Source of the DNA: a virus
Taxonomy: Duplodnaviria; Caudoviricetes
Reading direction: 5' to 3' (one strand)
Length of the DNA stretch: 29,253 bases
Virus record (IMG/VR): IMGVR_UViG_3300043120_000165
Coordinates: 1 to 29,253 of that record
Both the position numbers and the translations under genes were made by a program. This document shows, in pieces, positions 1 to 18,561 of the stretch (position 1 is the stretch's first letter; the number at the start of each line of letters is the position of its first letter). The notes under the pieces are model-generated. The model searched no databases, was not told the origin of the DNA, and saw nothing but the letters and a program-made list of their open reading frames with translations.

Positions 1-16
1 GTTTTTCTAAATTCAT
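1..16 (-). CDS. Probable 5' end of the major capsid protein gene (partial, MNLEK...)
   Basis: ATG at 16 preceded by AGGAG (26-30), directly downstream of the prohead protease. The product is inferred from gene order only. Confidence 0.55.
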
Positions 17-20
17 GCTT

Positions 21-617: not shown

Positions 618-808
618 CGCTTCTCAACCTCCTTAGGTTTTGCTACTTGTTTTTCATACACGTATTCAAGTTCATTGTCCTTGTATGAAATTTCATTAAT
701 CTTGTGTGTCTTACAAAAGGCTTCTATCGTATTAATCTTTTCTTTCTGTTCTTCTAAGACTGTATTTAATACATCTTTTGAAACCTTACCATTAATTGTT
801 ACCTTCAT
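614..808 (-). CDS. Small hypothetical protein in the head module
   Basis: 64 aa; overlaps the portal end by 17 nt and the protease start by ATGA, indicating translational coupling. Confidence 0.75.
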   Translation of the reverse strand: MKVTINGKVSKDVLNTVLEEQKEKINTIEAFCKTHKINEISYKDNELEYVYEKQVAKPKEVEKR

Positions 809-2006: not shown

Positions 2007-2025
2007 AGAGACCTCCTAATATATG

Positions 2026-2787
2026 CTATTTATTCGGTATTTTTATAGTACCTGAAATATGAATAGGTGTAAAATCAATTAGATGATCTTGGACATCTAT
2101 TTTAAAATCAGCCAAATCTTCAATATCATGGTTGAAAAAGTAATAGACGATATATTTTCCTGCCCCATCAAATGTAATAAAAAACAAATGCATAATATTT
2201 TTATTATTCTTTAATCTTTCCTTGAAACTATCGAAATGAAACGGGGTTAAGAGATATTTGCTATAGTCTTTTGTAGACAGCATCATATTCGTTAGCAAGC
2301 TAGCATCTTCAATAATAAAACCAAAATCAAAATTTTGATGATAAATGTTGTGCTTTAACATTTCATTCTTAGAATTTTGATAATTTTGTATGTAAGATTT
2401 ATATTTAGATGCATGTTTGTCGAATATTCTATTTAGGTTACTTTCGTAGTCTCTTAATGACGATTTGTTCTTATATTTATGTTCTTTTATTTTTACTACA
2501 TCAAGTTCACTTTCATTCAGGGATTCTTCAAATTGTCTATCTACTTCAGCTTGTTCCATTTTCTGTGAACTCGACTTTTTGACAGATTCAGATCCATCAA
2601 ATTGAAATTGCTCTAACAATATATTTCTATCTGGTCTAGGGATTAAAATATCCGGTCGTTCAAATTGATATGCATTGATATCTTTATTTGTGAATAATAA
2701 ATCAAATATTTCTGTCGACTTTCGACCTATACAATAGACACCGTCAGCATTATTTAAAATATTAACAAATCGATGTACTTCAATCAT
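2026..2787 (-). CDS. Orphan gene between terL and portal; possible PD-(D/E)xK-like nuclease
   Basis: 253-aa ORF with a GGTG RBS. ERPD-x10-LEQF resembles a restriction-fold catalytic pattern; the function is tentative. Confidence 0.7.
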   Translation of the reverse strand: MIEVHRFVNILNNADGVYCIGRKSTEIFDLLFTNKDINAYQFERPDILIPRPDRNILLEQFQFDGSESVKKSSSQKMEQAEVDRQFEESLNESELDVVKIKEHKYKNKSSLRDYESNLNRIFDKHASKYKSYIQNYQNSKNEMLKHNIYHQNFDFGFIIEDASLLTNMMLSTKDYSKYLLTPFHFDSFKERLKNNKNIMHLFFITFDGAGKYIVYYFFNHDIEDLADFKIDVQDHLIDFTPIHISGTIKIPNK

Positions 2788-2811
2788 GATATCACCAAAT
2801 CCTTCGATTAA

Positions 2812-4449
2812 TTATAGCATATTTTCATACTCGATTTTATATCGATTTAATACTGCATATGCAATAATGAGTGCTACAGCTCCATCTATTCTTTTATATT
2901 TACTACCAAGTTTTGATGGTTGAATATTCCCATTGATATCAATCTTTGCTTGGGTATTTGATAAGTTCCATTTCATGATTGGATTATTGTTATAGATCAC
3001 ATTACCATTCTTTAGATCAGCTTCAAGTTGCTTCATTGGTTCAGATAAAGAGTAGATCCCTTGTCGAACCTTTTCCATTTGAAATCCCAAGTCTTCCATT
3101 TCTTTAGTCCAATACTGACTATTCCACGGATCATAACCTACCCATAGAGGTCTAATCTCATAGGTTCTTATCATTGTTAGAAACCATTGTGTAACAAGTG
3201 TGAAGTCATTTTGATTACCTTCAGTCACTGTAATTAAACCTCTTTGAACCCAAATATCATAAGGTACATTATCTTCTTCTTTTCTACGCTTTATAACTTC
3301 ACTTGGCATAAAGAACTGTGGGATAACATACTTCTTACCATCTTTTATTAACAATAAAAGTGCAACTGTAAGGTCTGTGGTTGATGATAGGTCAACTCCA
3401 CCTATAGCGTAGTTGTTTCTTAACTCATTGATATCATAGGTTGCTTCATTATTTAGATCATCATATGTCAACCATGATCCTTGTTCTAATTGCTTAATGT
3501 TGAAGTCTTTAGAAAGCATCGTGACTCTTGTTGATAAGTCATGTCTGGATTTATTCATTAAGTCTTCAAGATATGAATATGTTTTAACTGTTCCTAAGCT
3601 CGGATTACTTTTCTGCCATGTATTCTTATCTTCGTAGATTTCATTAATTGAGTCTTGAGTATATAACCAAGGAAGCACACGTTCATCGTTGATCTCCCTT
3701 TTGATCATCTTTCTAACATAATCAAGTTTACTGTCTAAGAAACCACCCACTGTATTGCCTTCAGTTGTAATGATAAAAATAAGTGGTTCTTCTTTGGTCG
3801 ATTGACTTTGCTTGATCGCATCGTAAACTTTCGAATCAGTCATTTCATGAACTTCATCAATACAACCAACTTCTATATTGTAGCCATCTTTGTTTCGTGA
3901 TTGAGCTGATAACTTCTTAATCTTATTCTTTGTTTTTGGTGAGTAAATATGAAAGATGTTCTTTTTACTACGTTTTTCATTTGATAGTGCTTTCGATCCT
4001 TCTCTCATGTTGTTAATTTCATCAAATAATATATTAGCCTGTTCTGATGTGTTTGATGCACATACAATATCGACGCCACCTTTGGATAAGAAGAATTCTG
4101 CTAAGTCAATACCTGCAATGAATGTAGTCTTACCATTTTTTCTTGCAATAAGTAGAATCACTTCATTAAACCTTCTAAGATTCGAATTCGCCATCTTGAA
4201 TCCATAGGCAGCTTGGAGAATTGCTTTCTCCCATAATTCTAAAATGAATGGTTCACCATTAAATGGGCTTTTTGTATGTTTACAGAATGTTTCTATAAAC
4301 TCAATTCGAATGTTTCCTGGCTTTTCATCAAATATATATCTTGGGTTATTCATATCTTGAATTAGCGTTTCTAGAACTGTTAATAATTCTTTACCAACAA
4401 TGATATTTCCTTTTTGAATCTCCTCATAATACTTCGTTAAATAGTTCAT
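2812..4449 (-). CDS. terL: Terminase large subunit
   Basis: Walker A ARKNGKT, Walker B CIDEVH, nuclease motifs GVDLS, YDPWN and RIDGAVA. Confidence 0.97.
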   Translation of the reverse strand: MNYLTKYYEEIQKGNIIVGKELLTVLETLIQDMNNPRYIFDEKPGNIRIEFIETFCKHTKSPFNGEPFILELWEKAILQAAYGFKMANSNLRRFNEVILLIARKNGKTTFIAGIDLAEFFLSKGGVDIVCASNTSEQANILFDEINNMREGSKALSNEKRSKKNIFHIYSPKTKNKIKKLSAQSRNKDGYNIEVGCIDEVHEMTDSKVYDAIKQSQSTKEEPLIFIITTEGNTVGGFLDSKLDYVRKMIKREINDERVLPWLYTQDSINEIYEDKNTWQKSNPSLGTVKTYSYLEDLMNKSRHDLSTRVTMLSKDFNIKQLEQGSWLTYDDLNNEATYDINELRNNYAIGGVDLSSTTDLTVALLLLIKDGKKYVIPQFFMPSEVIKRRKEEDNVPYDIWVQRGLITVTEGNQNDFTLVTQWFLTMIRTYEIRPLWVGYDPWNSQYWTKEMEDLGFQMEKVRQGIYSLSEPMKQLEADLKNGNVIYNNNPIMKWNLSNTQAKIDINGNIQPSKLGSKYKRIDGAVALIIAYAVLNRYKIEYENML

Positions 4450-4766
4450 TCAGACATTCTACCTATAAACTTGTCAAATTCATCATCTTCATCGACTATA
4501 TTTTTACCCATTATTGAGTTTAGTGTTTTAATAACCGTTCCATATGAATTCACTAACTTAGTGTAATACTTTGCTGCTTCGGTTTGACGTTGCGCACCTT
4601 TTGATGAAACTTGAACAGCTCCATGTTTTTTTATTTGATTTTGAAGTATTCCAAGTTCAACCTTCATAAAAGCTGCTTGTTGGATTAAGTTATCTACTAA
4701 TTCTGTTTTGGTTTCATCAACCGATGAAAAAAGCGACCGAAGTCGCTTGTATTCAAAATTAACCAT
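4446..4766 (-). CDS. terS: Terminase small subunit (P27-like)
   Basis: 106-aa helical protein with IKKHG and an acidic DEDDEFDKF tail; ATGA overlap with terL. Confidence 0.8.
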   Translation of the reverse strand: MVNFEYKRLRSLFSSVDETKTELVDNLIQQAAFMKVELGILQNQIKKHGAVQVSSKGAQRQTEAAKYYTKLVNSYGTVIKTLNSIMGKNIVDEDDEFDKFIGRMSE

Positions 4767-4774
4767 ATATATAC

Positions 4775-6037
4775 CTAACCTTTAAAAATTGAAAAGATAA
4801 TTGCTACTATTGAAAGTACTAATGAAACTAATGCAATTGTTGTATTTAGTTTGTTGTTTTGTATGTCTAGTGCTACTTTATATAACTCATATTGCTCTTT
4901 ATACTTGTTTAGTATAATTTCTAAACTCTCTTTTACAAAAGTATATTCAAAAGGTAATGAAGTTGGATTATCTCCTTCATAAGTACCATATTCGACAGTC
5001 CAGTTATCTTTAAGCTTTTTGTTTAGCTCATCAATGTTGACAGAATTACCAGAATCTCTACTACTCTCGAGTTCAGCAATTTTTCTATAAAGCCATAATA
5101 AATTGCCGAAGTTATAGATTTTTTTAGCTTCAACACTGTAACCCGAAATTTTATAGTTAAGTATGTTCAACTCATAGTAAAAGTATAAATTATAATAAAG
5201 TATATTCCTATATTGTGAGAAAAAAGTCATTATAGATCTATGATCAAAATATCTCTCTGACGTATACAACTGAATATCTTGTATTGGCGTATACTCAGAA
5301 AAAGTTCTATCTAATAAAAAAACAGTATTAGCATGTTTGCTCTTTCCTAAGAGACCCATGTATGGTGGTTGGATTTTTTCTTTGTCTAATGATTTTACGT
5401 GATAAACATATAATGCCATGGACTCATATTTTTTATCAATATTTTTATAAAGAGTATTTTCAACATATTTTTGAAATGCAAGTTTAAGTAAAGAGTCATG
5501 ATGTTCAATATAATCGATAGTTCTATTATTGAGTCCGTTATCTTCAAAATCGAATCTATTATACCTGTTAATGATTTTTCTATTGACATTTCTCAAAGTT
5601 GATACAATAAAATCTCTTTCTTGATTAAAACTTTTAAAAGGTTGTTTTAGATTTAATTGAAACTCTACCATTGCATTATAGTTACTTCTTTGACACCAAG
5701 TCATATTAATTCCACTTATATATTCGTTGTCTTTAGTTGTAATATCGGCAAATAGTCCGTGACTAGAACTCATATTCTGAAAAATTAAGTATTGTGCTTT
5801 ACGTGAATACTTAAAATACATTCTATCTTTAGAAAACTTTTTTTTGTCTAAATGATGAATATTTCTTAATAATCTTTTTATTCCCGTATTGTCAAAAGAA
5901 TCGTAAAGACACACAAACCTTAATGACTGGTTACTATAATTTCTCGAAGAAAAAATTTCCTTGCCTTTGTCTGATTCAAAAAATGATATGTATTTATCTA
6001 GACTTTTATCAAACTCTTTAAAAAAATTATTAGTCAT
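4775..6037 (-). CDS. Orphan protein with a C-terminal transmembrane helix
   Basis: 420-aa AT-rich ORF with a GGGGG RBS; hydrophobic C-terminus IALVSLVLSIVAIIFSIF. Confidence 0.8.
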   Translation of the reverse strand: MTNNFFKEFDKSLDKYISFFESDKGKEIFSSRNYSNQSLRFVCLYDSFDNTGIKRLLRNIHHLDKKKFSKDRMYFKYSRKAQYLIFQNMSSSHGLFADITTKDNEYISGINMTWCQRSNYNAMVEFQLNLKQPFKSFNQERDFIVSTLRNVNRKIINRYNRFDFEDNGLNNRTIDYIEHHDSLLKLAFQKYVENTLYKNIDKKYESMALYVYHVKSLDKEKIQPPYMGLLGKSKHANTVFLLDRTFSEYTPIQDIQLYTSERYFDHRSIMTFFSQYRNILYYNLYFYYELNILNYKISGYSVEAKKIYNFGNLLWLYRKIAELESSRDSGNSVNIDELNKKLKDNWTVEYGTYEGDNPTSLPFEYTFVKESLEIILNKYKEQYELYKVALDIQNNKLNTTIALVSLVLSIVAIIFSIFKG

Positions 6038-6084
6038 TATTTAACCCCCCATTTATATAAGTTACTGTTCATGATTTCTAGATT

Positions 6085-6166
6085 TTCAAAAAAATCGACT
6101 TTCATTTTTTAATTGCCCACCCATGCGGTACCCTTACCACATGTATCATATCATAATGGGGGGGGG
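6085..6166 (-). other. Putative cos packaging region
   Basis: GC-rich island in AT-rich DNA between HNH and terS. On the minus strand: C9, then GGGTACCGCATGGGTGGGC, then A/T tracts. Position and pattern fit HK97-like cos phages. Confidence 0.6.
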
Positions 6167-7072
6167 TTACATAAATGTTTTAAATGATTCAGCCAATGCT
6201 GGAGCAAACACTATTAACAAATCAAAAAAATGCTGCAATAGTGTTTTGTCTTTCTTACCATTTATTATGGAGTCTTTAACTGGACCAATAATCTTAACTG
6301 CCTCATCTTGAGCCTTTTTTTCTTTTGAGAACATTTTTGTCTTCACTGACTTAACTTCATTCATTAAATTATCTAGTTTTACTTCTATGTTTGAAACTAA
6401 ATTAATATCCCCTGTATTTTGACCAGAGACATTGACATTCTGATTGACTACATTGCTAATGTTATTAATAGTTGATGGGATTTGGTTCTTAACTGAATTG
6501 AATTTTGCTTGATAGCATTGCACATCGTATTTTGTATCCTCATCAATTTTCATTTCTTTAATTGAAATTTCCTTCATCTCAATATACTCTATTTCAATCT
6601 CTGAAGTATCTGATGTATTGATTAAAATTGTTTTGCTTCTAACAAACTTAATATTTTCTTCTACCAAAGGTATATAAAGTAAGTATTTTTCAGTGTCTCT
6701 AAAAGCTCTAATTGATTCTAAATTACCTTTGCTATTAAAAGTACCTTTGATCTCAAACAAATATGTCTTTTTCTCATAGGTATCTTGATATTTTTTAAGT
6801 TCTTCTTTGGTTTGCTTATTTTGCTCATAAACATCTTTAACCTTTGAATATCCTTCTTTTGTGACATCTATTCCTTTTACAATTCCTACTTTTGCATAAT
6901 CCAAACCTTTTGCAGCAACTTTTTTCAATCCACCCAAAAAGCCTTGTTTACCTTTTTGCTCATCCGTAACAACCGATTCTTTGTTAATTCCTTCTTCTTT
7001 TTCTTCAATTGTTTCTTCACTTGAATTTTCATCTACATTAATCTTGTTTTCGTCAGTATTCAATGTTCTCAC
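6167..7072 (-). CDS. Orphan moron protein with its own promoter
   Basis: 301-aa ORF; the true start may be TTG at 7063 after GAGGTG. The stop codon abuts the C9 tract. Confidence 0.8.
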   Translation of the reverse strand: MRTLNTDENKINVDENSSEETIEEKEEGINKESVVTDEQKGKQGFLGGLKKVAAKGLDYAKVGIVKGIDVTKEGYSKVKDVYEQNKQTKEELKKYQDTYEKKTYLFEIKGTFNSKGNLESIRAFRDTEKYLLYIPLVEENIKFVRSKTILINTSDTSEIEIEYIEMKEISIKEMKIDEDTKYDVQCYQAKFNSVKNQIPSTINNISNVVNQNVNVSGQNTGDINLVSNIEVKLDNLMNEVKSVKTKMFSKEKKAQDEAVKIIGPVKDSIINGKKDKTLLQHFFDLLIVFAPALAESFKTFM

Positions 7073-7084
7073 CTCACTGTATAT

Positions 7085-7113
7085 ATTATATATAAATTAA
7101 GGTTTTTTGTCCA
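7085..7113 (-). promoter_or_regulatory. Sigma70/SigA promoter of the moron
   Basis: TGGACA-N17-TATAAT on the minus strand. Confidence 0.8.
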
Positions 7114-7145
7114 TCTTAGATGGTCTTACATTGCTTTACTTAAAC

Positions 7146-7433
7146 TTAAAAGTTTCCTTGTTCATCAAATATTACATCTTTCTTGTTAAATCTTCCATGC
7201 TCTTTGTTATGACAATCCCTACAAAGCAACTCCAGGTTATCTTGATTCAAACTTATATTTGTATCGTTAACATTATCTACGGTTAACCTAATCTTATGAT
7301 GAACCTCTTCACCAATTGCTCCACACCGCTCACACTTGCCCTGTGTGGCGTTTATTTTGATATTGCGAGCAACGAGCCAAGCCTTCGATTTATAAAACCT
7401 GTGAAGCTCTTTTGGTTTGCTCATAAGATTCAC
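7146..7433 (-). CDS. Terminase-associated HNH endonuclease (gp74-like)
   Basis: CERC...EVHHK...NLELLCRDCHNKEH; located upstream of cos/terS. Confidence 0.92.
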   Translation of the reverse strand: MNLMSKPKELHRFYKSKAWLVARNIKINATQGKCERCGAIGEEVHHKIRLTVDNVNDTNISLNQDNLELLCRDCHNKEHGRFNKKDVIFDEQGNF

Positions 7434-8538
7434 TTAGTTGTTTCGCCTTAGCATCCACTTGTTCCCAAGCCACATCAAGATCAACTCGTCCAATATGCCC
7501 ATAAGCTGCTAAAGGTTTAAACTTAACATTTTTCAGGTTTAATTCTTTAATAATGCTCGATGGTGTGAAATTGAAGTTCTCTTTGATTAGTTTTAAAAGG
7601 ATCTCATCTGATGCAACTCCAGTACCAAAGGTATCAACCGATACACTGACAGGATTAGCTACACCGATGGAGTAGGACACACAGACTTCGCACCTGTGCG
7701 CTAAATTTGCCGCTACGAGGGCTTTTGCTACGAATCTGGCATAGTAAGCCGCACTGCGGTCGACCTTGCTCACGTCCTTGCCAGAGAATGCGCCACCCCC
7801 ATGTTTTGCATAACCACCATAAGTATCAACAATAATCTTTCTACCTGTTAATCCAGAATCACCATAAGGTCCACCAACAACAAAAGCACCTGTTGGATTT
7901 ATTAAGACCTGAATGTGTGACAGATCTTCTCCAATCAAAGGCTTTAGCACTTCATTTAAAATGATCTCTTTTGCATAGTCTAATTGAATGCCATGTTTTG
8001 TTTGAGCAGATACTACTATCGTTTCATAAGCAATTGGTTCATCATTTTCATAAACGACAGAAACTTGACACTTCCCATCTGGTCCAAAGACGTGTCCATA
8101 CTTTGCCTTTCTAAGCTCATCTAGGCTTCTTGCGATGTCATGTGCCACAACGATTGGTAAAGGCATCAATTCGGGTGTTTCTTTGCAAGCGTAGCCAAAC
8201 ATTAAACCCTGGTCTCCTGCACCTTGTTCATGTTCATTGGTATGATTGACACCAAGAGCAATATCATCGGATTGCTTGGATATCTTTTCGATTACATTGA
8301 ATGGTTCATCATATCCGATTTCTTTTAATGTGTTTAATGCAACCTCTTTATAGTTCACTGATGCTTTGGATGTGACTTCACCAAAGATAAAAACAACATC
8401 ATCTTTGATGGCTGTTTCTACTGCTACTCTTGCAGCTTTATCTTGTTCTAAATGAGCATCAAGAATAGCATCACTAATTTGGTCACATATTTTATCTGGA
8501 TGTCCCTTAAAGACTGATTCGCTTGTTATAATTTTCAT
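7390..8538 (-). CDS. metK: S-adenosylmethionine synthetase (phage-encoded)
   Basis: SESV-x-x-GHPDK, GAGDQG, PDGK, GLTGRKIIVDTYGG and GGGAFSGKD signatures. Confidence 0.97.
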   Translation of the reverse strand: MKIITSESVFKGHPDKICDQISDAILDAHLEQDKAARVAVETAIKDDVVFIFGEVTSKASVNYKEVALNTLKEIGYDEPFNVIEKISKQSDDIALGVNHTNEHEQGAGDQGLMFGYACKETPELMPLPIVVAHDIARSLDELRKAKYGHVFGPDGKCQVSVVYENDEPIAYETIVVSAQTKHGIQLDYAKEIILNEVLKPLIGEDLSHIQVLINPTGAFVVGGPYGDSGLTGRKIIVDTYGGYAKHGGGAFSGKDVSKVDRSAAYYARFVAKALVAANLAHRCEVCVSYSIGVANPVSVSVDTFGTGVASDEILLKLIKENFNFTPSSIIKELNLKNVKFKPLAAYGHIGRVDLDVAWEQVDAKAKQLSESYEQTKRASQVL

Positions 8539-8561
8539 TGTTGTCCTCGCTTTTAATAGTT

Positions 8562-8584
8562 AAAAAGGAAGCTTCATCGCTTCC
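8562..8584 (-). terminator. Intrinsic terminator closing the four-gene cassette
   Basis: GGAAGC-gatgaa-GCTTCC-TTTTT on the minus strand. Confidence 0.75.
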
Positions 8585-8591
8585 CTTGGTT

Positions 8592-8891
8592 TTAGGTTTT
8601 GTTTTTGGTTAGTGGTATGAATGCTGCATACCTTGCATAATGATAGCCTTCACTCTCTACGAGTATTCCAAAGTCATGTTTATCAGATGTTACTAACAAA
8701 CAATGAAATACTCCAGCTTTATCACAATACATTGATTCAAGATGCTCTTTGATGAAATCATAATCGCTTAGTGGATCTCGAATAAAACATTCAAATAAAT
8801 CACTGTTAATTGTAATTGTCTTTTCAATAATGAATTCATCCTGTGGGATAAGTTCTTCTGGTGTTGGCTTTCTAATAAAATTTACTTTCAT
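8592..8891 (-). CDS. DUF6329-like small protein (paralog of 9682-10008)
   Basis: DYDFIKEH...MY.D...HCLLVT...GILVESEGYHYARY. Confidence 0.8.
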   Translation of the reverse strand: MKVNFIRKPTPEELIPQDEFIIEKTITINSDLFECFIRDPLSDYDFIKEHLESMYCDKAGVFHCLLVTSDKHDFGILVESEGYHYARYAAFIPLTKNKT

Positions 8892-9277
8892 GCTGTTGTA
8901 TCCTCGTCAATTCTCCATGCAGTATAAACACTTCTATATGTACAATCCCAAATATCTAGGATGACGCCATCTTTACAAACACTAATGTGACCTGCCATCT
9001 TTAATATGAATGTTCCTTTTGGATGAAGCTCACAGAAGTCACTACCTTTAATTCTTGGTTCACCTTTGATTGCTTTAAAGATAAGTCTTGGCTTTCCTTC
9101 TAAATACTTATAAATGAACTCGGTATCCTTGTAACTGGTGAAACTCCATTCACGCTTTTTCTGATTAAGTTCTCTTCTAGTTTCCATGTAGTCTTTATCA
9201 AATGCTGTCGAAATAGCTCTAACCACACAATCGCCTGTTTTAATACCTTTAGGATGCCTGTTGTAATAGTTATACAT
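8888..9277 (-). CDS. Hypothetical protein with a possible papain-like Cys-His-Asp triad
   Basis: GDCVVRAI...GHISV..DG.I.D.WD. Start placed at the second Met (9277), which overlaps the upstream stop. Confidence 0.75.
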   Translation of the reverse strand: MYNYYNRHPKGIKTGDCVVRAISTAFDKDYMETRRELNQKKREWSFTSYKDTEFIYKYLEGKPRLIFKAIKGEPRIKGSDFCELHPKGTFILKMAGHISVCKDGVILDIWDCTYRSVYTAWRIDEDTTA

Positions 9278-9704
9278 GTGTTTGCCACCCTTCATTCAAC
9301 CACTTAACTAGTTCTTTAACTGAATCGGTTGCAAATACAACCTTTTCATAATGTGTTAATCTTTCATAGACTGTGTAGGTCTTATCATGCCATGGTGAGT
9401 TTATTTGAACAACGATCAATGTGACGTTGGATTCCAAATCTGCAATTCTAAAGTCATCATAAAGATTGCCTTGAAGTGGACAGTTGTTTTTGAACCAAAC
9501 ATAACTCGTTTCTAAATCAACTTTACCACCATGCTTAATTTGCTTGATGATGTTGCCCATGCGTTTAGTCTTACTCTTTAAACTTGAGTCTTTACAAAAC
9601 CAATCGTACCATCCAGCTTGGATTTGAACCTTTACATCATTTGATTCGAAGTTTCCGTTATTGAAGGCTTGAATCCAATCCTTAAGCGTTTGTTGCTTTT
9701 CCAT
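9270..9704 (-). CDS. Conserved-looking phage hypothetical protein
   Basis: 144 aa; GGAGG RBS; AGWYDWFC and YVWFKNNCP...LYDDFRI motifs. Confidence 0.8.
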   Translation of the reverse strand: MEKQQTLKDWIQAFNNGNFESNDVKVQIQAGWYDWFCKDSSLKSKTKRMGNIIKQIKHGGKVDLETSYVWFKNNCPLQGNLYDDFRIADLESNVTLIVVQINSPWHDKTYTVYERLTHYEKVVFATDSVKELVKWLNEGWQTHV

Positions 9705-10008
9705 TGTTCAATCCTCCTATCTCACTTTTTCTGATAAATGCGGAGTATCTAGCATATCTTGAACCTTCTGCTTGAACTAGGATTCCATAATCTAATTCTT
9801 TAGTTGTTACCAAAATAGCATGCCATACATTATTACTATCTGTGTACATTAAGTCCTTGTGTTCTTTTATAAAATCATAATCACCAAGCATATCATCTAA
9901 GAACTTATTAAATCGTTTGTCTGTTATCTCAACTACTCTTTCAATAACAAAATCATCTTGTGGAACAATCTGTTCTTTGTATGCATTTGTGTCAAATTTA
10001 ACTTTCAT
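9682..10008 (-). CDS. DUF6329-like small protein
   Basis: DYDFIKEHKDLMY.D...HAILVT...GILVQAEGSRYARY; GAGG RBS. Confidence 0.8.
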   Translation of the reverse strand: MKVKFDTNAYKEQIVPQDDFVIERVVEITDKRFNKFLDDMLGDYDFIKEHKDLMYTDSNNVWHAILVTTKELDYGILVQAEGSRYARYSAFIRKSEIGGLNNGKATNA

Positions 10009-10044
10009 CGCTATTGCCTCTTTCCTAACCTTTTTGGGTTACTA

Positions 10045-10081
10045 CTATATATCACTCTAAAGGCCTTAAATAGCAAGTCAA
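10045..10081 (-). promoter_or_regulatory. Bipartite promoter/operator motif, copy 1
   Basis: TTGACTTGCTATT-N11-GAGTGATATATA; the same motif occurs at 23481. Confidence 0.7.
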
Positions 10082-10099
10082 TTCGACATCAATTGCTCA

Positions 10100-11311
10100 C
10101 TATAGTGACAATATCTGAAAGTCATTAATATGACTAAGTGGTATCTCTTTTCCGTTACGGATGAGATAGCAATCATCAAGCGATACTTTGTATTTGATAT
10201 AGCGTTTTACAATAACGTCTACAAACCTTCCATCAAGTTCCATGAGTCTCGCACTTCTTTGAAGCTGATCAGCTGCGATCATGGTTGATCCAGACCCACC
10301 AAATAAGTCTAGGACTATCTCATTAACTCTGGACGAATTCGAGATTGCTTTACCAACAAGCTCTAGAGGCTTCATGGTTGGATGTTCTTCATTTCGTTTT
10401 GGTTTGTTATATTCCCAGATAGTATCTTGTGTCCTGTCATCCACAAAGTAATGGGCTGCACCTTCTCTCCATCCATAAAGAATGGGTTCATGTCGCCAGT
10501 GATAATCTTGTCTGCCTAAAACAAGTGCATTCTTTACCCAGATAAGGCACTCAGCAAGTTTGTACCCAGCATTCTTGAAGGCATTTCTAAAGTTGAGTCC
10601 TTCTGTATCAGCATGACATACATAAATAGCACCACCTGGTTTTGTATGTTCAAACATATTCTCAAAGGCTTTATAAAGAAAAAGATAGAAGGTATTATCT
10701 TCCATCTTATCGTTCATAATTTTTCCAGCTGTTCCTTCATAGTCGACATTATATGGTGGATCTGTAAATACTAGATCAATCCGATCATCTTGGATCAGCT
10801 TCTTAACATCTGATTTTTCTGTTGAATCACCACACATCACTCTGTGATTACCTAAGATGTAAATATCACCTTTTTGTGTATATGGTGTATCGGTAAGATC
10901 ATCTGATGGATCAAAGTCATCATCGGTAGCATTGTCTGGAATATCAGCATCTAATTCTTCAAATCCGAATAGTGACATGTCCATTTCAATGTTTGCAAGT
11001 TCTTCTTCAAGTTTAGCAAAATCCCATGTAGCGAGTTCTGCAGTCTTGTTATCAGCAAGCCTAAATGCTTTGATTTGTTCTTCTGATAAGTCATCAGCAA
11101 TAATACACGGTACTTCATCAAGACCAAGCTTAAGACTTGCTTTCAGTCTTGTATGACCTGCAATGATCACATGATCCTTTGTGATCACAATCGGAACCTT
11201 AAATCCAAACTCCTCAATACTCTTTGCTACTGCATCAATTGCAGCATCATTGTTTCTTGGATTGTTTTCGTACTCTTGGAGTGCTGATACTTTCTTCATC
11301 ACTATATTCAT
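10100..11311 (-). CDS. ParB/Srx-domain fused N6/N4 DNA methyltransferase (beta class)
   Basis: N-terminal NNPR...SIEEFGF...IIAGHTR...ADNK; catalytic DPPY, then HPTMKP and DLFGGSGS. Confidence 0.95.
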   Translation of the reverse strand: MNIVMKKVSALQEYENNPRNNDAAIDAVAKSIEEFGFKVPIVITKDHVIIAGHTRLKASLKLGLDEVPCIIADDLSEEQIKAFRLADNKTAELATWDFAKLEEELANIEMDMSLFGFEELDADIPDNATDDDFDPSDDLTDTPYTQKGDIYILGNHRVMCGDSTEKSDVKKLIQDDRIDLVFTDPPYNVDYEGTAGKIMNDKMEDNTFYLFLYKAFENMFEHTKPGGAIYVCHADTEGLNFRNAFKNAGYKLAECLIWVKNALVLGRQDYHWRHEPILYGWREGAAHYFVDDRTQDTIWEYNKPKRNEEHPTMKPLELVGKAISNSSRVNEIVLDLFGGSGSTMIAADQLQRSARLMELDGRFVDVIVKRYIKYKVSLDDCYLIRNGKEIPLSHINDFQILSL

Positions 11312-11771
11312 TTATCCATACCTCTTCACCTTTTTCTAAACGTTTGGCCATCAGTTCTATCTCTGCTTTTTTATCATTGTACTCAATACCGAACTTTGTA
11401 ATGAGTAAATATTTAATCGCTGTAATTTCAGGCAGTGACTGCTTCTTATATTTTGTGATACGTTTTTTAGTACCTGATTTAGTCTCTTCAATTACAGTTT
11501 GTGTTTCTTCATATTCAAATCCAACAGCCCGTTGATACATTGCATCGACGAGCTTTTCTTTTAATTCCTCATCACCATATTGAAAGGCTTTGTTCAATTT
11601 TGGATGAGCTTTTCTTAACTTAATGAGTGTCTTTTCTGTGATACCTAAGTATTCAGCAACCTGTCGTTGAGTTGCTCTTTTAGATATCATTTCAGATATG
11701 GCTTTTAATCTACTATTTAGATGCCCAGATTCTTCCCAACGCTCATACAGATCTAGCATTTTCCCTTTCAT
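11247..11771 (-). CDS. HTH protein, terminase-small-subunit-like
   Basis: HTH QRQVAEYLGITEKTL followed by AMYQRAVG.EYEE...PEITAIKYLL; GGAG RBS. Confidence 0.75.
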   Translation of the reverse strand: MKGKMLDLYERWEESGHLNSRLKAISEMISKRATQRQVAEYLGITEKTLIKLRKAHPKLNKAFQYGDEELKEKLVDAMYQRAVGFEYEETQTVIEETKSGTKKRITKYKKQSLPEITAIKYLLITKFGIEYNDKKAEIELMAKRLEKGEEVWINEYSDEESISTPRVRKQSKKQ

Positions 11772-11849
11772 TTAATCACTCCAACTGTACAACTGTCATC
11801 GCATAAAACTGTAATAGTTTACCAGTTGGAATACTACAAGTATCTCTGC

Positions 11850-11880
11850 AAAAACAAAAAGGAACTCATTTCTGAATTCC
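11850..11880 (-). terminator. Terminator/attenuator inside the leader of the modification-packaging operon
   Basis: GGAATTCA-GAAA-TGAGTTCC-TTTTTGTTTTT on the minus strand. Confidence 0.8.
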
Positions 11881-11952
11881 CATTATTTCTAGGCTGGTTT
11901 TAAAGCCAGTATTCCATGTTATTTATAGCATATCAAAATAGTCAACTTTTAT

Positions 11953-11974
11953 CTATATGCTTAAAGCATAATCG
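11953..11974. repeat. Palindromic site A (TATGCTT-A-AAGCATA)
   Basis: Perfect 7-bp arms; 20/22 identical to the reverse complement of 23153-23174 and 16/17 to 25297-25313. Confidence 0.8.
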
Positions 11975-12048: not shown

Positions 12049-12108
12049 TTTCCACTTTGTTAGCCCATATACACAGATTATCGGCGTAATGAACAAAAAT
12101 TATTCTTG
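12049..12108 (-). promoter_or_regulatory. Conserved GCCGATAA element, copy 1
   Basis: 12049-12086 matches 19991-20028 at 32/38 positions; contains the sigma28-type -10 GCCGATAA. Confidence 0.7.
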
Positions 12109-13086
12109 AATACCCTTTAATTCTTGTTCAAGCATGTATTCCTCTCTAATTTCTGATAATGTTTTGTTACTTTCTTTATGAATTGCGAAAACATATGTTT
12201 GTATACTTGACCATCCGTAAAGATTTTTTAACCAGACTTGCATTGATAACTCTTTACCATCTACTTTAACATTTCCATTTTTCAGAAGAATAGCTTCATC
12301 TTCCCTATCTTTTGCTCTTATCACATCGCCAGCTTTAACTACACCCCAGGATAGCAATGTATCTATTTTTGGAAGTGATCTTCTGGTTATTCCTTTGGTG
12401 ATCCTTTGAGTTGGCTCAGATTTATCAAGTAAGTTCACGTAGAAATCATCATAGTTCGCTAATGGAAGTAATTTTTCTGTATCAAGGTAAATATCAGATC
12501 CTAGTTTATATGGTATTAGTTTAAAGCAACTCATGTCTACTTTGTTTTTGTTTAACCAAGCAACTGCTGATAAAGTCTGTTCGTCAAATTCAGAAGCAAC
12601 TAATATTATTCTTTGGTTCTCATTGAATTTATCCAAAGCATTGTTGACTTTTAAAAATTCTTTGACTTTTCTAAGTCCAAGCTCATATGATGTTAGTTCG
12701 TTCAGCGTAAATTCTTCTTTATACTTTTCAATATAAGGAGCGTAGACAACCTTAACTAGGTCTTCCACTGATTTAATGGTTGCATAACTTGCAGCATATC
12801 TGATAGCTTGAAACTCAAAAGCTTCTTTCCTACCCTCGATATCTTTTTTATCACGTTTGATTTCAATTAATACCACAGAACCATTATTATCAATTGCGGT
12901 TAAGTCACTTCTGCCATTCTTTTCGTTCTTTACCTGTCTACCAATTATTAACAATGATTCTTCATCATCACAAACCATATCAATATTAGTTCTAAGAACT
13001 TCTTCGATATCACTTTCTAGTAGACCAAGATCAGAGAATGTAACCTTTTCTATTTTTGTTGTTTTTTTACTTTTTAAATTGTACAT
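12100..13086 (-). CDS. NucS/DUF91-like PD-(D/E)xK nuclease with a RAMA-like C-terminal domain
   Basis: RSDLTAID...VLIEIKR...QAIRYAA nuclease motifs. The C-terminal LLSWGVVKAGD...AILLKNGNVKVDG...KTLSEIR resembles RAMA. AGGAGG RBS. Confidence 0.75.
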   Translation of the reverse strand: MYNLKSKKTTKIEKVTFSDLGLLESDIEEVLRTNIDMVCDDEESLLIIGRQVKNEKNGRSDLTAIDNNGSVVLIEIKRDKKDIEGRKEAFEFQAIRYAASYATIKSVEDLVKVVYAPYIEKYKEEFTLNELTSYELGLRKVKEFLKVNNALDKFNENQRIILVASEFDEQTLSAVAWLNKNKVDMSCFKLIPYKLGSDIYLDTEKLLPLANYDDFYVNLLDKSEPTQRITKGITRRSLPKIDTLLSWGVVKAGDVIRAKDREDEAILLKNGNVKVDGKELSMQVWLKNLYGWSSIQTYVFAIHKESNKTLSEIREEYMLEQELKGIQE

Positions 13087-13097
13087 GAAATCCTCCT

Positions 13098-13132
13098 AAA
13101 AAAAAGATGCTATACCTTTTCAGTATAACATC
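13098..13132 (-). terminator. Terminator after hsdS overlapping an extended -10 for the nuclease gene
   Basis: GATGTTATAC-tgaaaag-GTATAGCATC-T8; the 5' arm contains TGnTATACT. Confidence 0.65.
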
Positions 13133-13159
13133 ACATTTACATATTGTATATAGTTCACA

Positions 13160-14659
13160 TTATTGCTTAACGTTTCTGTTCATAAGAGAGATCATGTGTT
13201 TATACTTTTGAACTATTACCTCTTGTTTAAATTTTGGCGGGAGTGGGAACAAAATGTTTAGAATATTTTCCCTTGAAATACCAGGAATCAAACTTCTAGC
13301 TTTTGATTTTAAATCAGTAACATAATAACTTAAAACCATTTTTAAGTATTCATAATCCAAAAAATCACTACGTAAAGCCATAATTTGTCGAGCAATGTGG
13401 ATATCTCCTAAATAGTTATATGCGATATCTCCAATTGTTCCTTTAACTGTAATCAACAAGTCGCCTTTTTGAGAAATAACACCTGGCGCATTCGTCCAAC
13501 GATTAATTATCAATCTCCCATTGTCAAAATTACTTGCACCTGTCATATATGGTATTCCAACTTGCTTAGAATTGTACCTATCTTTTGTCAAGTCTCTGCC
13601 AGATATCAATTTAATAACATCACCTAGTCTAATGAATATCCAATCTTCTGGTATCTCGAAAGGAAGTTCTTCTGTAATATCATTATGCCGAGATCCTATT
13701 TTTTCGATTAACCGATAGTTCTCATCTTTATATATGTGACTAACTGATTTGAAAATATTTTTTGAATGACAATATTTATCGAATTCAATTTTAGCAAGAT
13801 TTTCTTGTTGAATCTCACTAAATAAGTCTCCTTTTATTGATACTAATAGAATACTTTTTTGTAGTTCCTCTTTAAATCTGATATCCAGCTGATCATCCAT
13901 AATATTCTGTATTCTAAGTTTTTCTATGAGGGAATCCAAGTAATCAAGTTGATTTGCAATAATCTCTTGTTCTTCTAATGGTGGTACGGGTACATGTAAA
14001 GCCCTTATCTTATTTATACCTACTCCACCTATTATTCCTGAGATAGATGTTTTAAACAAATCTGTAAATTCGGGTGTTTGTAAGAAATAATACAGATATC
14101 TTTCGTTAAACATATATGGGGATATTGCGGCGAGTTTATTACCAAAACACACAATTTGGTTAGTTATAGCAATTTTTCTACCCGCGCTTCCACCTTCTAT
14201 GCAAAACAGTATTGAATTCTCTAATGCTTGCTCAAAGTTTTCATAATCAGAAATACGAACATTATTATTATAATTAATCGTCCGATCAAAATTTACATCT
14301 TTTGTTCCAATATAGGGATATCCAATTTCGGTGTTTGTGTATTTCTTTTTCTTGACTCCTTCGTTTATACTATTCCCAGTTCGTACATTTGCGATACTTT
14401 CAAGAGATGCTATTGCCCAGTGATCAGGAAGATCGTATACTGAATCTAAATCAATATACTTTTTATTCTTGATTCCGTATTCAAACCATCCTAACTCATC
14501 TTTCAGTAAAAAAAGAGGTTTTCCTTTGACGTTATTGTTCTTTCTAAAATTAATAATATCTGTTATTAATTCCTTTGATTCAATGCCATCAGAATTTTTG
14601 AGATATCTACCAAATACATACTCACTCAGTATTGATGTTCTAAGTTCATCTGCAAACAT
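13160..14659 (-). CDS. hsdS: Type I R-M specificity subunit
   Basis: Two TRDs bounded by LPDHW/IPEDW and PVPPLEEQ/PLPPKFKQ conserved regions. Confidence 0.93.
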   Translation of the reverse strand: MFADELRTSILSEYVFGRYLKNSDGIESKELITDIINFRKNNNVKGKPLFLLKDELGWFEYGIKNKKYIDLDSVYDLPDHWAIASLESIANVRTGNSINEGVKKKKYTNTEIGYPYIGTKDVNFDRTINYNNNVRISDYENFEQALENSILFCIEGGSAGRKIAITNQIVCFGNKLAAISPYMFNERYLYYFLQTPEFTDLFKTSISGIIGGVGINKIRALHVPVPPLEEQEIIANQLDYLDSLIEKLRIQNIMDDQLDIRFKEELQKSILLVSIKGDLFSEIQQENLAKIEFDKYCHSKNIFKSVSHIYKDENYRLIEKIGSRHNDITEELPFEIPEDWIFIRLGDVIKLISGRDLTKDRYNSKQVGIPYMTGASNFDNGRLIINRWTNAPGVISQKGDLLITVKGTIGDIAYNYLGDIHIARQIMALRSDFLDYEYLKMVLSYYVTDLKSKARSLIPGISRENILNILFPLPPKFKQEVIVQKYKHMISLMNRNVKQ

Positions 14660-14663
14660 ATTA

Positions 14664-16142
14664 TTATATCCCCATGAAATCTTTGATTTCTTGAATAAGT
14701 TCTTTGATTGAACTATCTAACTCATCTTTTTCTCTTAAATATTGTGTAATAAGTAACTGAGGATCTAATATTTCATTGTTAACATATGGAAAGCCACAAA
14801 AATCTAAATTATAATTTATAGTCTTTATATCTGAATATACAACTTTCTTTGATTTGTAAAATCCCTCAGAGTCCTTAATTTCTATTTTTGATTTAAGCCA
14901 TGTTCGAATTTCATCAAAATGATGATTTGTTATAGGCTTAGTTTTTGAAAATGCTTTGTAATTACTTGGTAAATCTAATCGATAAAACCAAGTTTCTTTT
15001 GTTCCTGAACCATTATTATCAAAGAACAATACATTCGTTGTAATAGTTGTATATGGAGCAAAAACGCTTTTTGGTAACCTTATAACTGTGTGCAAATTAA
15101 AGTTGTCTAATAGATGCTTCTTAATTGCAGATTTGGCTCCATCATCACCAACTAAAAACCCATCAGGTAAAACCACACCAACTCTACCGTTCAATTTTAA
15201 TCTAAACATAATTAGAATCATGAATAAATCTGCAGTTTCTGAACTCCTCATGTCATACGGAAAACTCATCTTGACTATGTCATCTTCTGTCCCTCCATAT
15301 GGTGGATTCATCAATATTACGTCGAACTTCTCATTTTCAGAATAGTCCTTAACATTCTTTATTAATGAATTATCATAATAAAAATGTGGTTCATCAACAT
15401 CATGCAATATTAGGTTTGTTAAACCTAGAGAAAAGGCAAAGGATTTTTTTTCGATACCATATAGATTCCTTCTTGCAATTTGAATATCCTCAGGAGTTGA
15501 AATATTCTTTTCAAAGTGTTTTAAAGCACTAACAAGAAAACCCCCAGTTCCAGCTGCAAAATCCGCTACTGTTTCACCAAGCTGAGGGTTTACAACTTCG
15601 GTTATAAAATCAGTCAATGCTCTTGGAGTATAAAACTCGCCTCCATCTCTCTTAGAATCCTGTAAATCTTTTAGCATTGATTCATATAAATCACCAAACT
15701 CGTGTGCTTCAGTATAGTTTGTAAAATCAACCTCGTTTAATGCATTTATCATTTGTCTTAATTTGGTGCCATTCTTCATAAAATTATTTGCATCTTCAAA
15801 GATGTTTTTAACAATAATATGTCTTTTGGGTGTGTATTCATTGATTTCTATTTTCTTCAAATAAGGGATTAAATCGTTATTAACAAAATTTAGCAAATCA
15901 TCACCAGTCAGTGCTTTTCCGTCATTTGAATCTACTGCCCAATTTCTCCATTTAAACTCTTCTGGTATAACTGACTTGTAATCATCTTCTTTTATTTCCC
16001 AAATCTCTTCTTTTGCATCGTAAATCTTTAAAAATATCATCCAAATAGTCTGCTTTAAATATTGGACAGTTCCTGAAAGATCATCACCTCTCATGATATT
16101 TTGTAGTCTTTTAATCAGTGTTGTTATAGACAAAATACTCAC
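14664..16142 (-). CDS. hsdM: Type I R-M methyltransferase
   Basis: GEFYTPR, DFAAGTGGF and NPPY motifs; GTG start. Confidence 0.95.
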   Translation of the reverse strand: MSILSITTLIKRLQNIMRGDDLSGTVQYLKQTIWMIFLKIYDAKEEIWEIKEDDYKSVIPEEFKWRNWAVDSNDGKALTGDDLLNFVNNDLIPYLKKIEINEYTPKRHIIVKNIFEDANNFMKNGTKLRQMINALNEVDFTNYTEAHEFGDLYESMLKDLQDSKRDGGEFYTPRALTDFITEVVNPQLGETVADFAAGTGGFLVSALKHFEKNISTPEDIQIARRNLYGIEKKSFAFSLGLTNLILHDVDEPHFYYDNSLIKNVKDYSENEKFDVILMNPPYGGTEDDIVKMSFPYDMRSSETADLFMILIMFRLKLNGRVGVVLPDGFLVGDDGAKSAIKKHLLDNFNLHTVIRLPKSVFAPYTTITTNVLFFDNNGSGTKETWFYRLDLPSNYKAFSKTKPITNHHFDEIRTWLKSKIEIKDSEGFYKSKKVVYSDIKTINYNLDFCGFPYVNNEILDPQLLITQYLREKDELDSSIKELIQEIKDFMGI

Positions 16143-16143
16143 C

Positions 16144-18462
16144 TCAATTTTTATATAATAAATTCACTATTGTCTCTATACTTGAAAGATACTGTTTCTT
16201 GCTGCCAAATCTTCTTATAGTATGTACTATACCACCATACTTTCCAAAAGTTTGCAACTCTAATACCGAAATATCTTCTAAAACACTAGAGTCGTGTTTC
16301 ATATATACTTCGAGTAAATCATCAACAATAACACTTATTTCGTTACTGAGTGACTTGTAATATGATGAATCCTTGACATTTTTAACTCTCTCGATCTTCA
16401 ATTTTACTTCTTGATCAAAACCTATCATTGAAATCAAGTCATATATATCAACATCTTTACCTGCTTTATCGAGAAGATCTATTAGATTTACTCCTTTTTC
16501 TTCAAAACGATTGATAATACTAGATTTTTCTTTGGTTAACCATTGCTTTCTAAATATTTCGTGTGTTGCGTACTCTTCTAGGATTATTTTTCTAAAATTT
16601 TCAGAATGATTTGCTACTAGCTTGCCATCAATTCCATAATACAATTCCATTTCGCTAATGATTTTTGCATCAACATCAGTTACTCGATATTTAATACTGT
16701 CTTCATTTAAATCTTCAACTGAATCTTCAACTAAATCATTTTCATCATCTTGATATGGCTTATCCAGAGGTCCAACATAAACTGATGTTGCAGGACCATC
16801 GAATTCAGGATCACTAAATAACAATGTTGCTTTTCTGAAATCTAAAATTGAAAAAAATCTCTTATCTCTATCCCAAACTAGTCGAGTTCCTCTACCAATT
16901 ATTTGCTTAAATTTAGTCATAGAATTTATTACTGTGTCTAGTACAATAACTTTGCATAGTTTAATATTAACACCTGTAGTTAGTAGTTCGGATGTTGTCG
17001 CAATAACTGGATATTTAGAATTCATATCACTAAAATTTTCTAATTGTGATTTTCCAAATTGATCGTCACCTGTTATTTTTGTTACATATCTGTCATCTTG
17101 AGCGACCAAATCACTATTTTCATTTATGAGTGCTTGTCTCATTCTAGCAGCATGGTCTATATCAACACAAAAAACTATAGTCTTCGCGAATCTATCAGTC
17201 TCTTTTAAGTACTCAGTTATACGTTTTGCGACAATTTTAGTTCTTTCATCTATTATTATTTTTTTGTCAAAATCTTTTGAGGTATATACTCTCTGCTCAA
17301 TTTCATTACCGTAAACATCAAGTTTACCTGATTCCGGAATATAACCTTCCAAATCTTTATCAATTCCAAATCTTAAGACTCTATAAGGTGCTAAGAAACC
17401 ATCATCAATACCTTCTTTAAGGCTATATGTGTAAATAGGTTCTCCAAAATATTCACTATTTGATACATCTTCAGTTTCTTTTGGAGTTGCTGTCATACCT
17501 AAGTGTATTGCATCAGAAAAATAATCTAGTACTTTTCTCCAAGCACTGTTCTCCTTAGCGGATCCACGATGACACTCATCAACAATAATCAAGTCAAAGA
17601 AATCAGGTTTAAATTGCTTGAAAGTTTCAAAATCATCTTCTCCAGATAATTGCTGATATAAAGACATAAATATATCATAAGCAGAGTCTAATACTTTTTT
17701 TTCAACTTTAGTGATTACATTTTTATTTTTGAAAGGTGCAAAGTCGTCAAGTATCGTTTGGTCTATCAATATATTTCTATCCGCCAAATAAAGTACTTTT
17801 TTCACCAATCCAGCAGCATATAACCTGTGAATAATTTGAAAAGCAGTGTATGTTTTACCTGTACCAGTAGCCATAACTAACATGGCTCTTTTTTTAAGAT
17901 TAGAATCCTTATTTACCTTAGCGACAAACTCAACTGCCCTATTAATCGCAATTCTCTGATAGTATCTAGGTTTATTTCCACCTTCTCTATAGTGATAAGC
18001 AGTCTTAATAACACTTTCGATATCATCATCTATAGATTTAAAATTCTTATATCTGTTCCAAAGATCATCACTGGAAGGAAAATCATTCATACCAAGCTCG
18101 CGTTCTCTTCCAGTTAACATGTCGTGCTCCAAAAATCCATTACCATTTGTTGAGTAGGCAAAAGGAACATCTAGTATTCTAGCATACTCAATAGCCTGCT
18201 GGATACCATCATGAACAGAGTGTTTAAGATCTTTTGCTTCAACAATTGCTATGGGATAATTATTGTGATGATATAACAAATAATCTGCACGTTTTTGAGT
18301 GCCTCTCTTTGTTCTTTTTCCATTCACTATAACCTTTCCATCAGTAAAAACATCTGATGAGATTACTCTTTTTTCCATTGATATTTTATCAAAAGTCCAT
18401 CCGCTCGAACTTAACGCAGGTTCGATATATCTCTTCTTAACATCTTCTTCAGTAAGATTCAT
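16144..18462 (-). CDS. hsdR: Type I R-M restriction subunit (EcoAI/EcoEI-like size)
   Basis: ADY...VEAK nuclease motif, MATGTGKT, DECH, TATP, QIIGRGTR. Likely start at 18462 after GGGGG; the ORF extends to 18474. Confidence 0.95.
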   Translation of the reverse strand: MNLTEEDVKKRYIEPALSSSGWTFDKISMEKRVISSDVFTDGKVIVNGKRTKRGTQKRADYLLYHHNNYPIAIVEAKDLKHSVHDGIQQAIEYARILDVPFAYSTNGNGFLEHDMLTGRERELGMNDFPSSDDLWNRYKNFKSIDDDIESVIKTAYHYREGGNKPRYYQRIAINRAVEFVAKVNKDSNLKKRAMLVMATGTGKTYTAFQIIHRLYAAGLVKKVLYLADRNILIDQTILDDFAPFKNKNVITKVEKKVLDSAYDIFMSLYQQLSGEDDFETFKQFKPDFFDLIIVDECHRGSAKENSAWRKVLDYFSDAIHLGMTATPKETEDVSNSEYFGEPIYTYSLKEGIDDGFLAPYRVLRFGIDKDLEGYIPESGKLDVYGNEIEQRVYTSKDFDKKIIIDERTKIVAKRITEYLKETDRFAKTIVFCVDIDHAARMRQALINENSDLVAQDDRYVTKITGDDQFGKSQLENFSDMNSKYPVIATTSELLTTGVNIKLCKVIVLDTVINSMTKFKQIIGRGTRLVWDRDKRFFSILDFRKATLLFSDPEFDGPATSVYVGPLDKPYQDDENDLVEDSVEDLNEDSIKYRVTDVDAKIISEMELYYGIDGKLVANHSENFRKIILEEYATHEIFRKQWLTKEKSSIINRFEEKGVNLIDLLDKAGKDVDIYDLISMIGFDQEVKLKIERVKNVKDSSYYKSLSNEISVIVDDLLEVYMKHDSSVLEDISVLELQTFGKYGGIVHTIRRFGSKKQYLSSIETIVNLLYKN

Positions 18463-18561
18463 GATATCCCCCATTTTAGTTATGATTTATTTTCAGATAC
18501 TCTTTTAATATTATACTATAAATAAGTTCAAAAAACGACACCTTGTTACAATTAACGACCA

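Follow-up and report, generated by a model that had tools for sequence, protein, structure and literature searches.

A predicted four-armed leader RNA in front of the methylation and packaging genes of a prophage-like element

To our knowledge, validated riboswitches in phages are rare. Several kinds of described leader RNA bear comparison with the one reported here: the SAM-I junction is four-way and is accompanied by a kink-turn, a pseudoknot and a ligand pocket in the P3 internal loop, and the NiCo (czcD) riboswitch is a tight four-helix junction with few unpaired bases and ON logic. SAM-VI, as described in PMC6914780, reads SAM through an unpaired U and a junction-terminal U-G wobble, and the same source describes SAM-VI and its relatives as feedback control of SAM supply. 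For the antiterminator putL, cryo-EM later paired the base that lies between its two predicted stems, according to the account in PMC9378689. With regard to gene content, the description in PMC4260502 gives prophages of the Phi1207.3/Phi-m46.1 type metK, HNH, ParB-methyltransferase, terminase, portal and serine recombinase genes, all of which they have in common with the element studied here, and places the integration site of Phi-m46.1 in an RNA uracil methyltransferase gene, which our element likewise adjoins.

That element is contained in IMG/VR record IMGVR_UViG_3300043120_000165, of which we analysed positions 1 to 29,253 (the window, 29,253 nucleotides). In front of its methylation and packaging genes lies a leader of about 80-95 nt that is predicted from sequence to fold into a four-armed RNA (11827-11916, minus strand). 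This is a real structured leader and a previously unlisted one: it is absent from Rfam 15, and no description of the motif was found in the literature searched, including a word search of PMC5737381. At gathering thresholds Rfam 15 has no match in the window, and at E up to 10 its sole hit is a CRISPR repeat on the opposite strand (E 2.8); from five distant loci came two unrelated matches, both below threshold. No SAM class matches; an earlier sequence-only reading of the window had offered SAM as a guess while recognising no SAM riboswitch consensus. ARAGORN calls no tRNA or tmRNA gene in the window. Sequence words of the motif were not found in the searchable part of the supplements of PMC10690425 (10,006 candidates); DNAVirus_8095 of that collection, assigned to Acholeplasmatales hosts, was considered and rejected, as it precedes RusA genes.

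The element and its late genes

The window is a prophage-like record in which a serine recombinase gene lies beside an RNA m5U methyltransferase gene and a type I restriction system has been inserted. From 11771, the minus strand encodes in order a 174-aa protein, a ParB-domain DNA methyltransferase, DUF6329 genes, metK, HNH, terS, terL, portal and protease. Gene 1 (11247-11771), which encodes the 174-aa protein, is terminase-small-subunit-like (phrog_309, E 7e-25; about 30% identity to annotated TerS of several phages), and its family has no match among solved structures. The methyltransferase gene behind it (10100-11311; ParB-N plus an N6/N4 DNA methyltransferase) overlaps gene 1 by 65 nt (11247-11311) in a different frame, a similar overlap occurs in distant members, and translational coupling of the two genes is possible. 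The phage metK, for SAM synthetase, lies at 7390-8538 in the same run. The window seems to carry two small-terminase-like genes, the phrog_309 type at 11247-11771 and a 106-aa gene (4446-4766; phrog_1066, unknown function) immediately ahead of terL. Between an activator-like gene and the late promoter, 12090-18474 is occupied by the type I restriction-modification genes and by a 328-aa gene that matches nothing in Pfam or PHROG, and the resemblance of the window to its relatives ends at 12090. The 161-aa activator-like protein itself has no tblastn match upstream of the leaders. The named relatives are mostly genome bins of Acholeplasmataceae, Izemoplasmatales and other Bacilli.

Fold and distribution of the leader RNA

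Comparison with shuffled sequences shows structure beyond chance expectation in the leader (z = -3.2, none of 200 shuffles folding as well), and a pair of Watson-Crick helices of at least 8 bp arises in 23 of 1000 shuffles. When 53 sequences taken from 96 distinct cores, themselves chosen by pattern, were aligned with plain MAFFT (alignment A2), unguided RNAalifold produced a four-way junction with double changes at 10 of 29 pairs; the isolated 97-mer, 11824-11920, has the same fold as both its minimum free energy and its centroid structure (-30.6 kcal/mol, z -4.8), and the opposite strand reaches -21.2 kcal/mol (z -2.35). The closing helix, P1, pairs 11908-11916 with 11827-11835 and is the 9-bp long-range helix that the sequence-only reading had picked out on the minus strand; it is found by RNAalifold and by covariation, and the last 4-7 nt of its 3' strand double as the start of a strand that can pair with the ribosome-binding site (RBS). 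In P1 columns 4-8 of the unfitted alignment all 12 departures are G-U wobbles, which points to a single strand of minus-strand polarity. The P2 hairpin (11892-11907) pairs GGCU at 11904-11907 with AGCC at 11892-11895, a register paired in 98.6% of cells among the 53 sequences and carrying double changes in L068, L548 and L689. A hairpin at 11894-11909 had been read here instead; its CUGG...CCAG sequence is present, but that register is 87.3% paired and is equalled by 170 of 500 shuffles. P2 accepts a 4-nt loop or a 50-nt insert, so that the arm ranges from 10 to 66 nt among members, with L408 and L479 mis-anchored in the P2 tallies. The single unpaired U that follows (11891) is invariant in alignments A2 and A3, although the patterns partly used for picking members contain it. 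P3 (11850-11890) consists of a lower stem, formed by a purine strand and a U tract, below a GAAA-loop hairpin. That hairpin and the U tract (stem 11860-11881) are present as the sequence-only reading had them; they are however part of a larger arm, whose lower stem joins the U tract to the purine strand ahead of it. P4 (11836-11849; GCA/UGU), with a purine-rich loop of 5-8 nt, had been missed, and a three-way, SAM-III-like model (R1) was dropped once covariation in P4 was seen.

Among 31 diverse members, 94.6% of cells are paired and double changes occur at 18 of 27 pairs (0 of 500 shuffles), as against 35-52% pairing in slid controls, in an alignment that was fitted to a covariance model and so leans towards it, and with a shuffle test that kinship inflates; 6 of the 18 pairs sit in the upper hairpin, where a terminator alone would account for them. 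P4 is paired in 100% of these members, its third pair being A-U in 28 and G-C in 3, an exchange that falls on separate branches of the gene 1 tree (L579; L408 and L417), and its fourth pair is G-C in L571, L579 and L582. The pairs that close the junction, C-G, U-A, A-U, G-U and G-U, are invariant in 31 of 31, a count that is partly circular because the patterns and models used for picking members select the core. We regard the helices as real and the predicted fold as shown by covariation, the absence of which would have counted against the switch proposed in the sequence-only reading. As drawn, the junction has one unpaired base only, so that a metabolite pocket would hardly fit unless the invariant pairs open.

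Relatives were gathered through gene 1, giving 255 loci and 114 distinct gene-anchored leaders. When leaders are anchored on the TerS-like gene rather than on the RNA, the core is present in 108 of the 114, and by eye 4 of the 6 core-less leaders retain the hairpin and U run. The core is kept in gene 1 loci even though the DNA upstream is replaced; it has been lost at least three times (L256/L370, L360, L231), and each time the terminator-like hairpin remains. Members found by covariance-model searches of genomes and a viral pattern scan reach down to 24-37% identity in gene 1. The covariance models matched 27/151, 17/151, 15/150, 5/151, 2/31 and 12/151 in genome samples, counts that overlap between samples and include weak, terminator-only matches; in the large genome searches no more than about 28-29 candidates were scored for each genome, so that a missing match does not amount to absence. 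Pattern scans for distant members contained 2 genuine members among 120 hits, 5 among 16 and 3 among 51 (the last three all previously found), the rest being mostly chance. The weak genome matches that were inspected (E above about 1e-3) are plain terminators, save L417, L571 and the decayed copies L410 and L414.

With redundant contigs counted, 115 of 116 loci have the methyltransferase gene behind gene 1, and 91 of 94 have metK in the flank; both genes are also present in L574, the most distant complete element (24% identity). This linkage is that of one operon inherited whole and not an independent association, and since no intact member lies before any other gene, the downstream genes offer no separate hint of what a ligand might be. 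Decay or rearrangement seems to account for the copies that lack an intact gene 1 behind them, namely L405, L409, L410, L414, L684, L689 and the upstream member of each tandem pair in L220 and L239. The copy in L410 (G036:C9:26982-27052) has a re-paired P2 and no P4 and precedes a lone DUF6329-like gene, and in L427 (1725-2279; G041) an intact motif is followed directly by a deletion-made fusion between the beginning of the TerS-like gene and a portion of metK. L220 (1349-1429) and L239 (2009-2089) hold a second, diverged copy with its own -10 about 95 nt upstream of the ordinary one; P4 is broken in the L220 tandem copy. These second copies are of the L408-type variant, and leaders therefore recombine between elements. 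Natural minimal versions of the motif exist in L571 and L582, as do natural loss variants.

Promoter, terminator and ribosome-binding site

A predicted -35 element, TAGATA (11950-11955), is followed at a spacing of 17 bp by a predicted -10, TATGCT (11927-11932; TATACT in most relatives), both on the minus strand. Among 109 leaders with enough flank, 24 have the window's promoter type (type A), 69 have a different type (type B) and 16 fit neither pattern. Type A is defined by its -35 region, so that only the -10 spacing serves as a test, and a -10-like hexamer does lie 17 bp behind TAGAYA in all 24. The sequence-only reading had instead chosen an extended -10, TGnTATAAA, which occurs in only 2 of these 24 leaders and is not the conserved element. 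With the -10 at this spacing, the predicted transcription start falls near 11920, and P1 would begin some 5 nt into the transcript. A TGC-N5-GCA palindrome (11958-11968, minus strand), seen by eye in the 24 type-A promoters a short way upstream of the -35, is likely to be a regulator site. At type-B loci an activator-like gene, presumably ArpU/RinA-like, lies upstream in 5 of the 7 shown. Since the core stands behind two unrelated promoter types, the RNA is kept independently of its promoter. Sigma-dependent pause sites occur at lambdoid late promoters, and in the window and its type-A relatives a TAnnnT hexamer (11916-11921) lies 5 nt behind the -10, with a TTGAC of the spacer 18 bp away; the hexamer may belong to a second promoter, mark such a pause site or extend P1.

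Within P3, the hairpin with stem 11860-11881 runs at once into the U tract, and intrinsic termination is predicted there. U makes up at least 8 of the final 12 nt of P3 in every one of the 110 members, whose hairpins have a median energy of -9.3 kcal/mol. The lower stem of P3 is one-sided, with purine 5' and pyrimidine 3' in 541 of 550 pairs, which suggests that termination as well as base pairing has been under selection. In an aptamer-controlled attenuator the sensing domain is complete before the terminator is made; here P4 and the P1 3' strand are transcribed after the U tract, and the finished junction therefore cannot decide termination. At most, the terminator serves as a first filter that leaks or is under separate control; its embedding in the fold makes for an unusual two-layer design whichever partner binds. 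In three loci of other phages (L595:2955-2990, L596:2950-2990 and L597:2887-2938), a hairpin and U run precede the RBS of metK or terS at a short distance without the four-way core; in L596 and L597 a promoter-like site lies immediately ahead of the hairpin.

The RBS of gene 1, GGAG at 11779-11782, can be covered by an anti-RBS strand (11823-11833) that pairs with 11777-11787 (equalled in 3 of 200 shuffles). The 8-bp helix of 11823-11830 with 11780-11787 that had been read on the minus strand is indeed there, and 11827-11830 are common to it and to P1. The proposed competition between the two helices is supported by the modelled opening of the RBS: in the free fold of the window the site is buried (opening 0.02), and enforcing the junction raises the opening to 0.91 at a cost of 5.0 kcal/mol. 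An attenuator combined with a translational switch had been proposed; a single fold that also switches the terminator does not fit a terminator inside P3. Across 72 distinct platforms, mostly close relatives (5 members for which no start was found and one tandem copy were left out), enforcing the junction raises the opening by more than 0.1 in 62 relative to the P1-blocked state and in 59 relative to the free fold, without lowering it in any. The two states differ by a median of +1.3 kcal/mol, and in 53 of the 72 the anti-RBS strand outperforms 95% of shuffles. In 27 aligned sequences the anti-RBS helix is 96.6% paired with 3 double-change cells (2 of 500 shuffles), although these fall at only 2 of its 9 pairs (28 of 500). 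In 13 other, mostly distant members, the best duplex between aptamer and RBS never reaches the 5% level against shuffles (best 17 of 200). Little or no opening is modelled for L085, L254, L373-L376, L387, L417, L570 and L579, and in L571 and L582 the modelled OFF state employs the P3 3' strand instead, which is suggestive only. The mutually exclusive platform helix is thus seen in the near clade, with no significant signal in distant members.

Possible partners and comparison with known systems

On the observed sequence, covarying fold, overlap of P1 with the anti-RBS helix and linkage to gene 1, we base a tentative preference, held at somewhat under even confidence, for an effector-gated translational ON switch with an embedded terminator. 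On binding to the invariant junction, a small effector would keep P1 closed and expose the RBS of the TerS-like first late gene. Transcription would start near 11920, and the P3 hairpin and U tract would act as a leaky terminator that keeps basal late expression low; in the models, RNA that reads through defaults to a state in which the end of the P1 3' strand is paired with the GGAG region; and an effector at the junction might then tip the near-equal balance towards the four-way fold, opening the RBS. The junction is invariant while the arms vary and gene 1 falls to 24-26% identity, and an unchanging partner, which may be a small molecule, an ion or host RNA polymerase, seems to fit this better than a fast-evolving phage protein.

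The same evidence bears on the other readings. If a phage protein (the TerS-like gene 1 product, the ParB-methyltransferase or the late activator) bound the junction and controlled gene 1 translation, the tight association of the motif with the TerS-like gene (108 of 114 leaders) and the position of type-B promoters behind an activator-like gene (5 of 7 loci shown) would be natural; yet the core is unchanged while the protein falls to 24% identity, the modelled ON logic would make self-binding a positive loop, and leader variants shift between gene lineages, the L408/L417 variant lying on separate branches, so we consider a phage protein rather improbable. An effector-free leader, made up of a constitutive leaky terminator and a stable 5' structure that protects the mRNA and, together with the RBS helix, sets gene 1 output at a low level, would suit terminator features that are found in all 110 members and outlast core loss, as well as the other phages in which promoter, hairpin with U run and RBS follow one another without the motif. 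A static fold would not, however, need invariant junction bases or G-U wobbles over a range down to 24% protein identity, and we judge it unlikely. Leader-peptide attenuation, in which an AUG at 11917 opens a five-codon frame (MEYWL) whose ribosome would control the terminator, draws on the first three A2 columns, which are mostly ATG or GTG with a G that is invariant even where unpaired (17 of 53 cells), but the start is missing (AGG or AAG) in L011, L021, L049, L206 and L571, a stop falls at codon 4 in L068 and L378, and frame lengths vary by eye; we give it very little credence.

Another alternative is a cis-acting antiterminator like HK022 put, whose junction would bind RNA polymerase or a conserved host factor for read-through of the late operon, the RBS overlap being incidental. 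The leader is predicted to head the transcript of a long series of late genes, its invariant core suits a conserved host partner, P2 and P3 are two stems one base apart as was once predicted for putL (PMC9378689), and structures directly upstream of terminators can lower termination, as reported in bioRxiv 10.64898/2026.06.17.733018. Against this, no sequence likeness to put was noticed, the leader's own terminator is inside the fold and so could not be suppressed by it, a scan of the window from 1 to 11800 finds two minus-strand terminator-like sites only, one of them within the methyltransferase gene, and the conserved anti-RBS helix is left unaccounted for. We therefore regard antitermination as doubtful; if RNA polymerase does bind, this would be a put-like element outside enterobacterial phages. 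HK022 putL resembles the leader in its length of about 70-90 nt, its place at the 5' end of a phage operon and, in the older predicted structure, its adjacent stems with one base between them (PMC9378689). The put RNA itself differs, as two stem-loops and a triplex without a closing P1, a P4 or an RBS role, and comes from another host phylum.

As to the effector, the presence of metK and the methyltransferase in the operon makes SAM the likeliest individual metabolite; even so, over all readings together SAM has only a low probability, and the remainder of the share given to an effector goes to a metal ion or another metabolite. A specific form of the idea, which we put forward with low confidence, is a new prophage-borne class of SAM riboswitch with ON logic: phage MetK would make SAM, SAM at the junction would open translation of the TerS-like and methyltransferase genes, and packaging would be licensed only when new DNA can be methylated. 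Prophage packaging would then be tied to methylation capacity through a new fold. The motif is found in 0 of 22 host-type metK loci, and SAM-I (above the Rfam threshold) stands beside host-type metK in 9 of 20 loci of the order of genome G001 (L657-L676). Four other, related metK-carrying phage regions (two streptococcal ones, FP_Brigit and Arian) have no match to the motif, a point of difference beside the gene content shared with Phi1207.3/Phi-m46.1-type prophages.

The leader has the general mark of riboswitches, a conserved, covarying, aptamer-like domain in a 5' leader. With SAM-III (SMK box) and SAM-VI it shares translational control by RBS pairing (predicted for the leader), conservation centred on the junction, metK in the operon, and an unpaired U with a U-G wobble as in the SAM-VI pocket described in PMC6914780, though an unpaired U and a junction wobble are non-specific and common in RNA. 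In that description, SAM-III and SAM-VI have three stems on one three-way junction and the Shine-Dalgarno sequence within the aptamer, joining P1 and P3, whereas the leader has four helices, with P4 100% paired, and its Shine-Dalgarno sequence (11779-11782) lies outside the fold, about 45 nt downstream; SAM-VI is an OFF switch (PMC6914780), and the leader has modelled ON logic, a terminator inside one arm and no Rfam match. SAM-I (S box, RF00162) is similar in its multi-helix junction closed by P1, and the same host group carries SAM-I before metK; its model does not match the leader, in which the kink-turn, the pseudoknot and the P3 internal-loop pocket are not evident, and its terminator lies downstream of the aptamer rather than inside the fold. 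The NiCo riboswitch is likewise a four-helix junction with few unpaired bases, and the leader's modelled logic is also ON, but the leader has no Rfam match at E up to 10 and no metal-transport genes downstream. Set beside these systems, the leader should not be filed in any SAM class and is instead an orphan riboswitch-like candidate, compact and well aligned, with a defined core and a predicted ON output.
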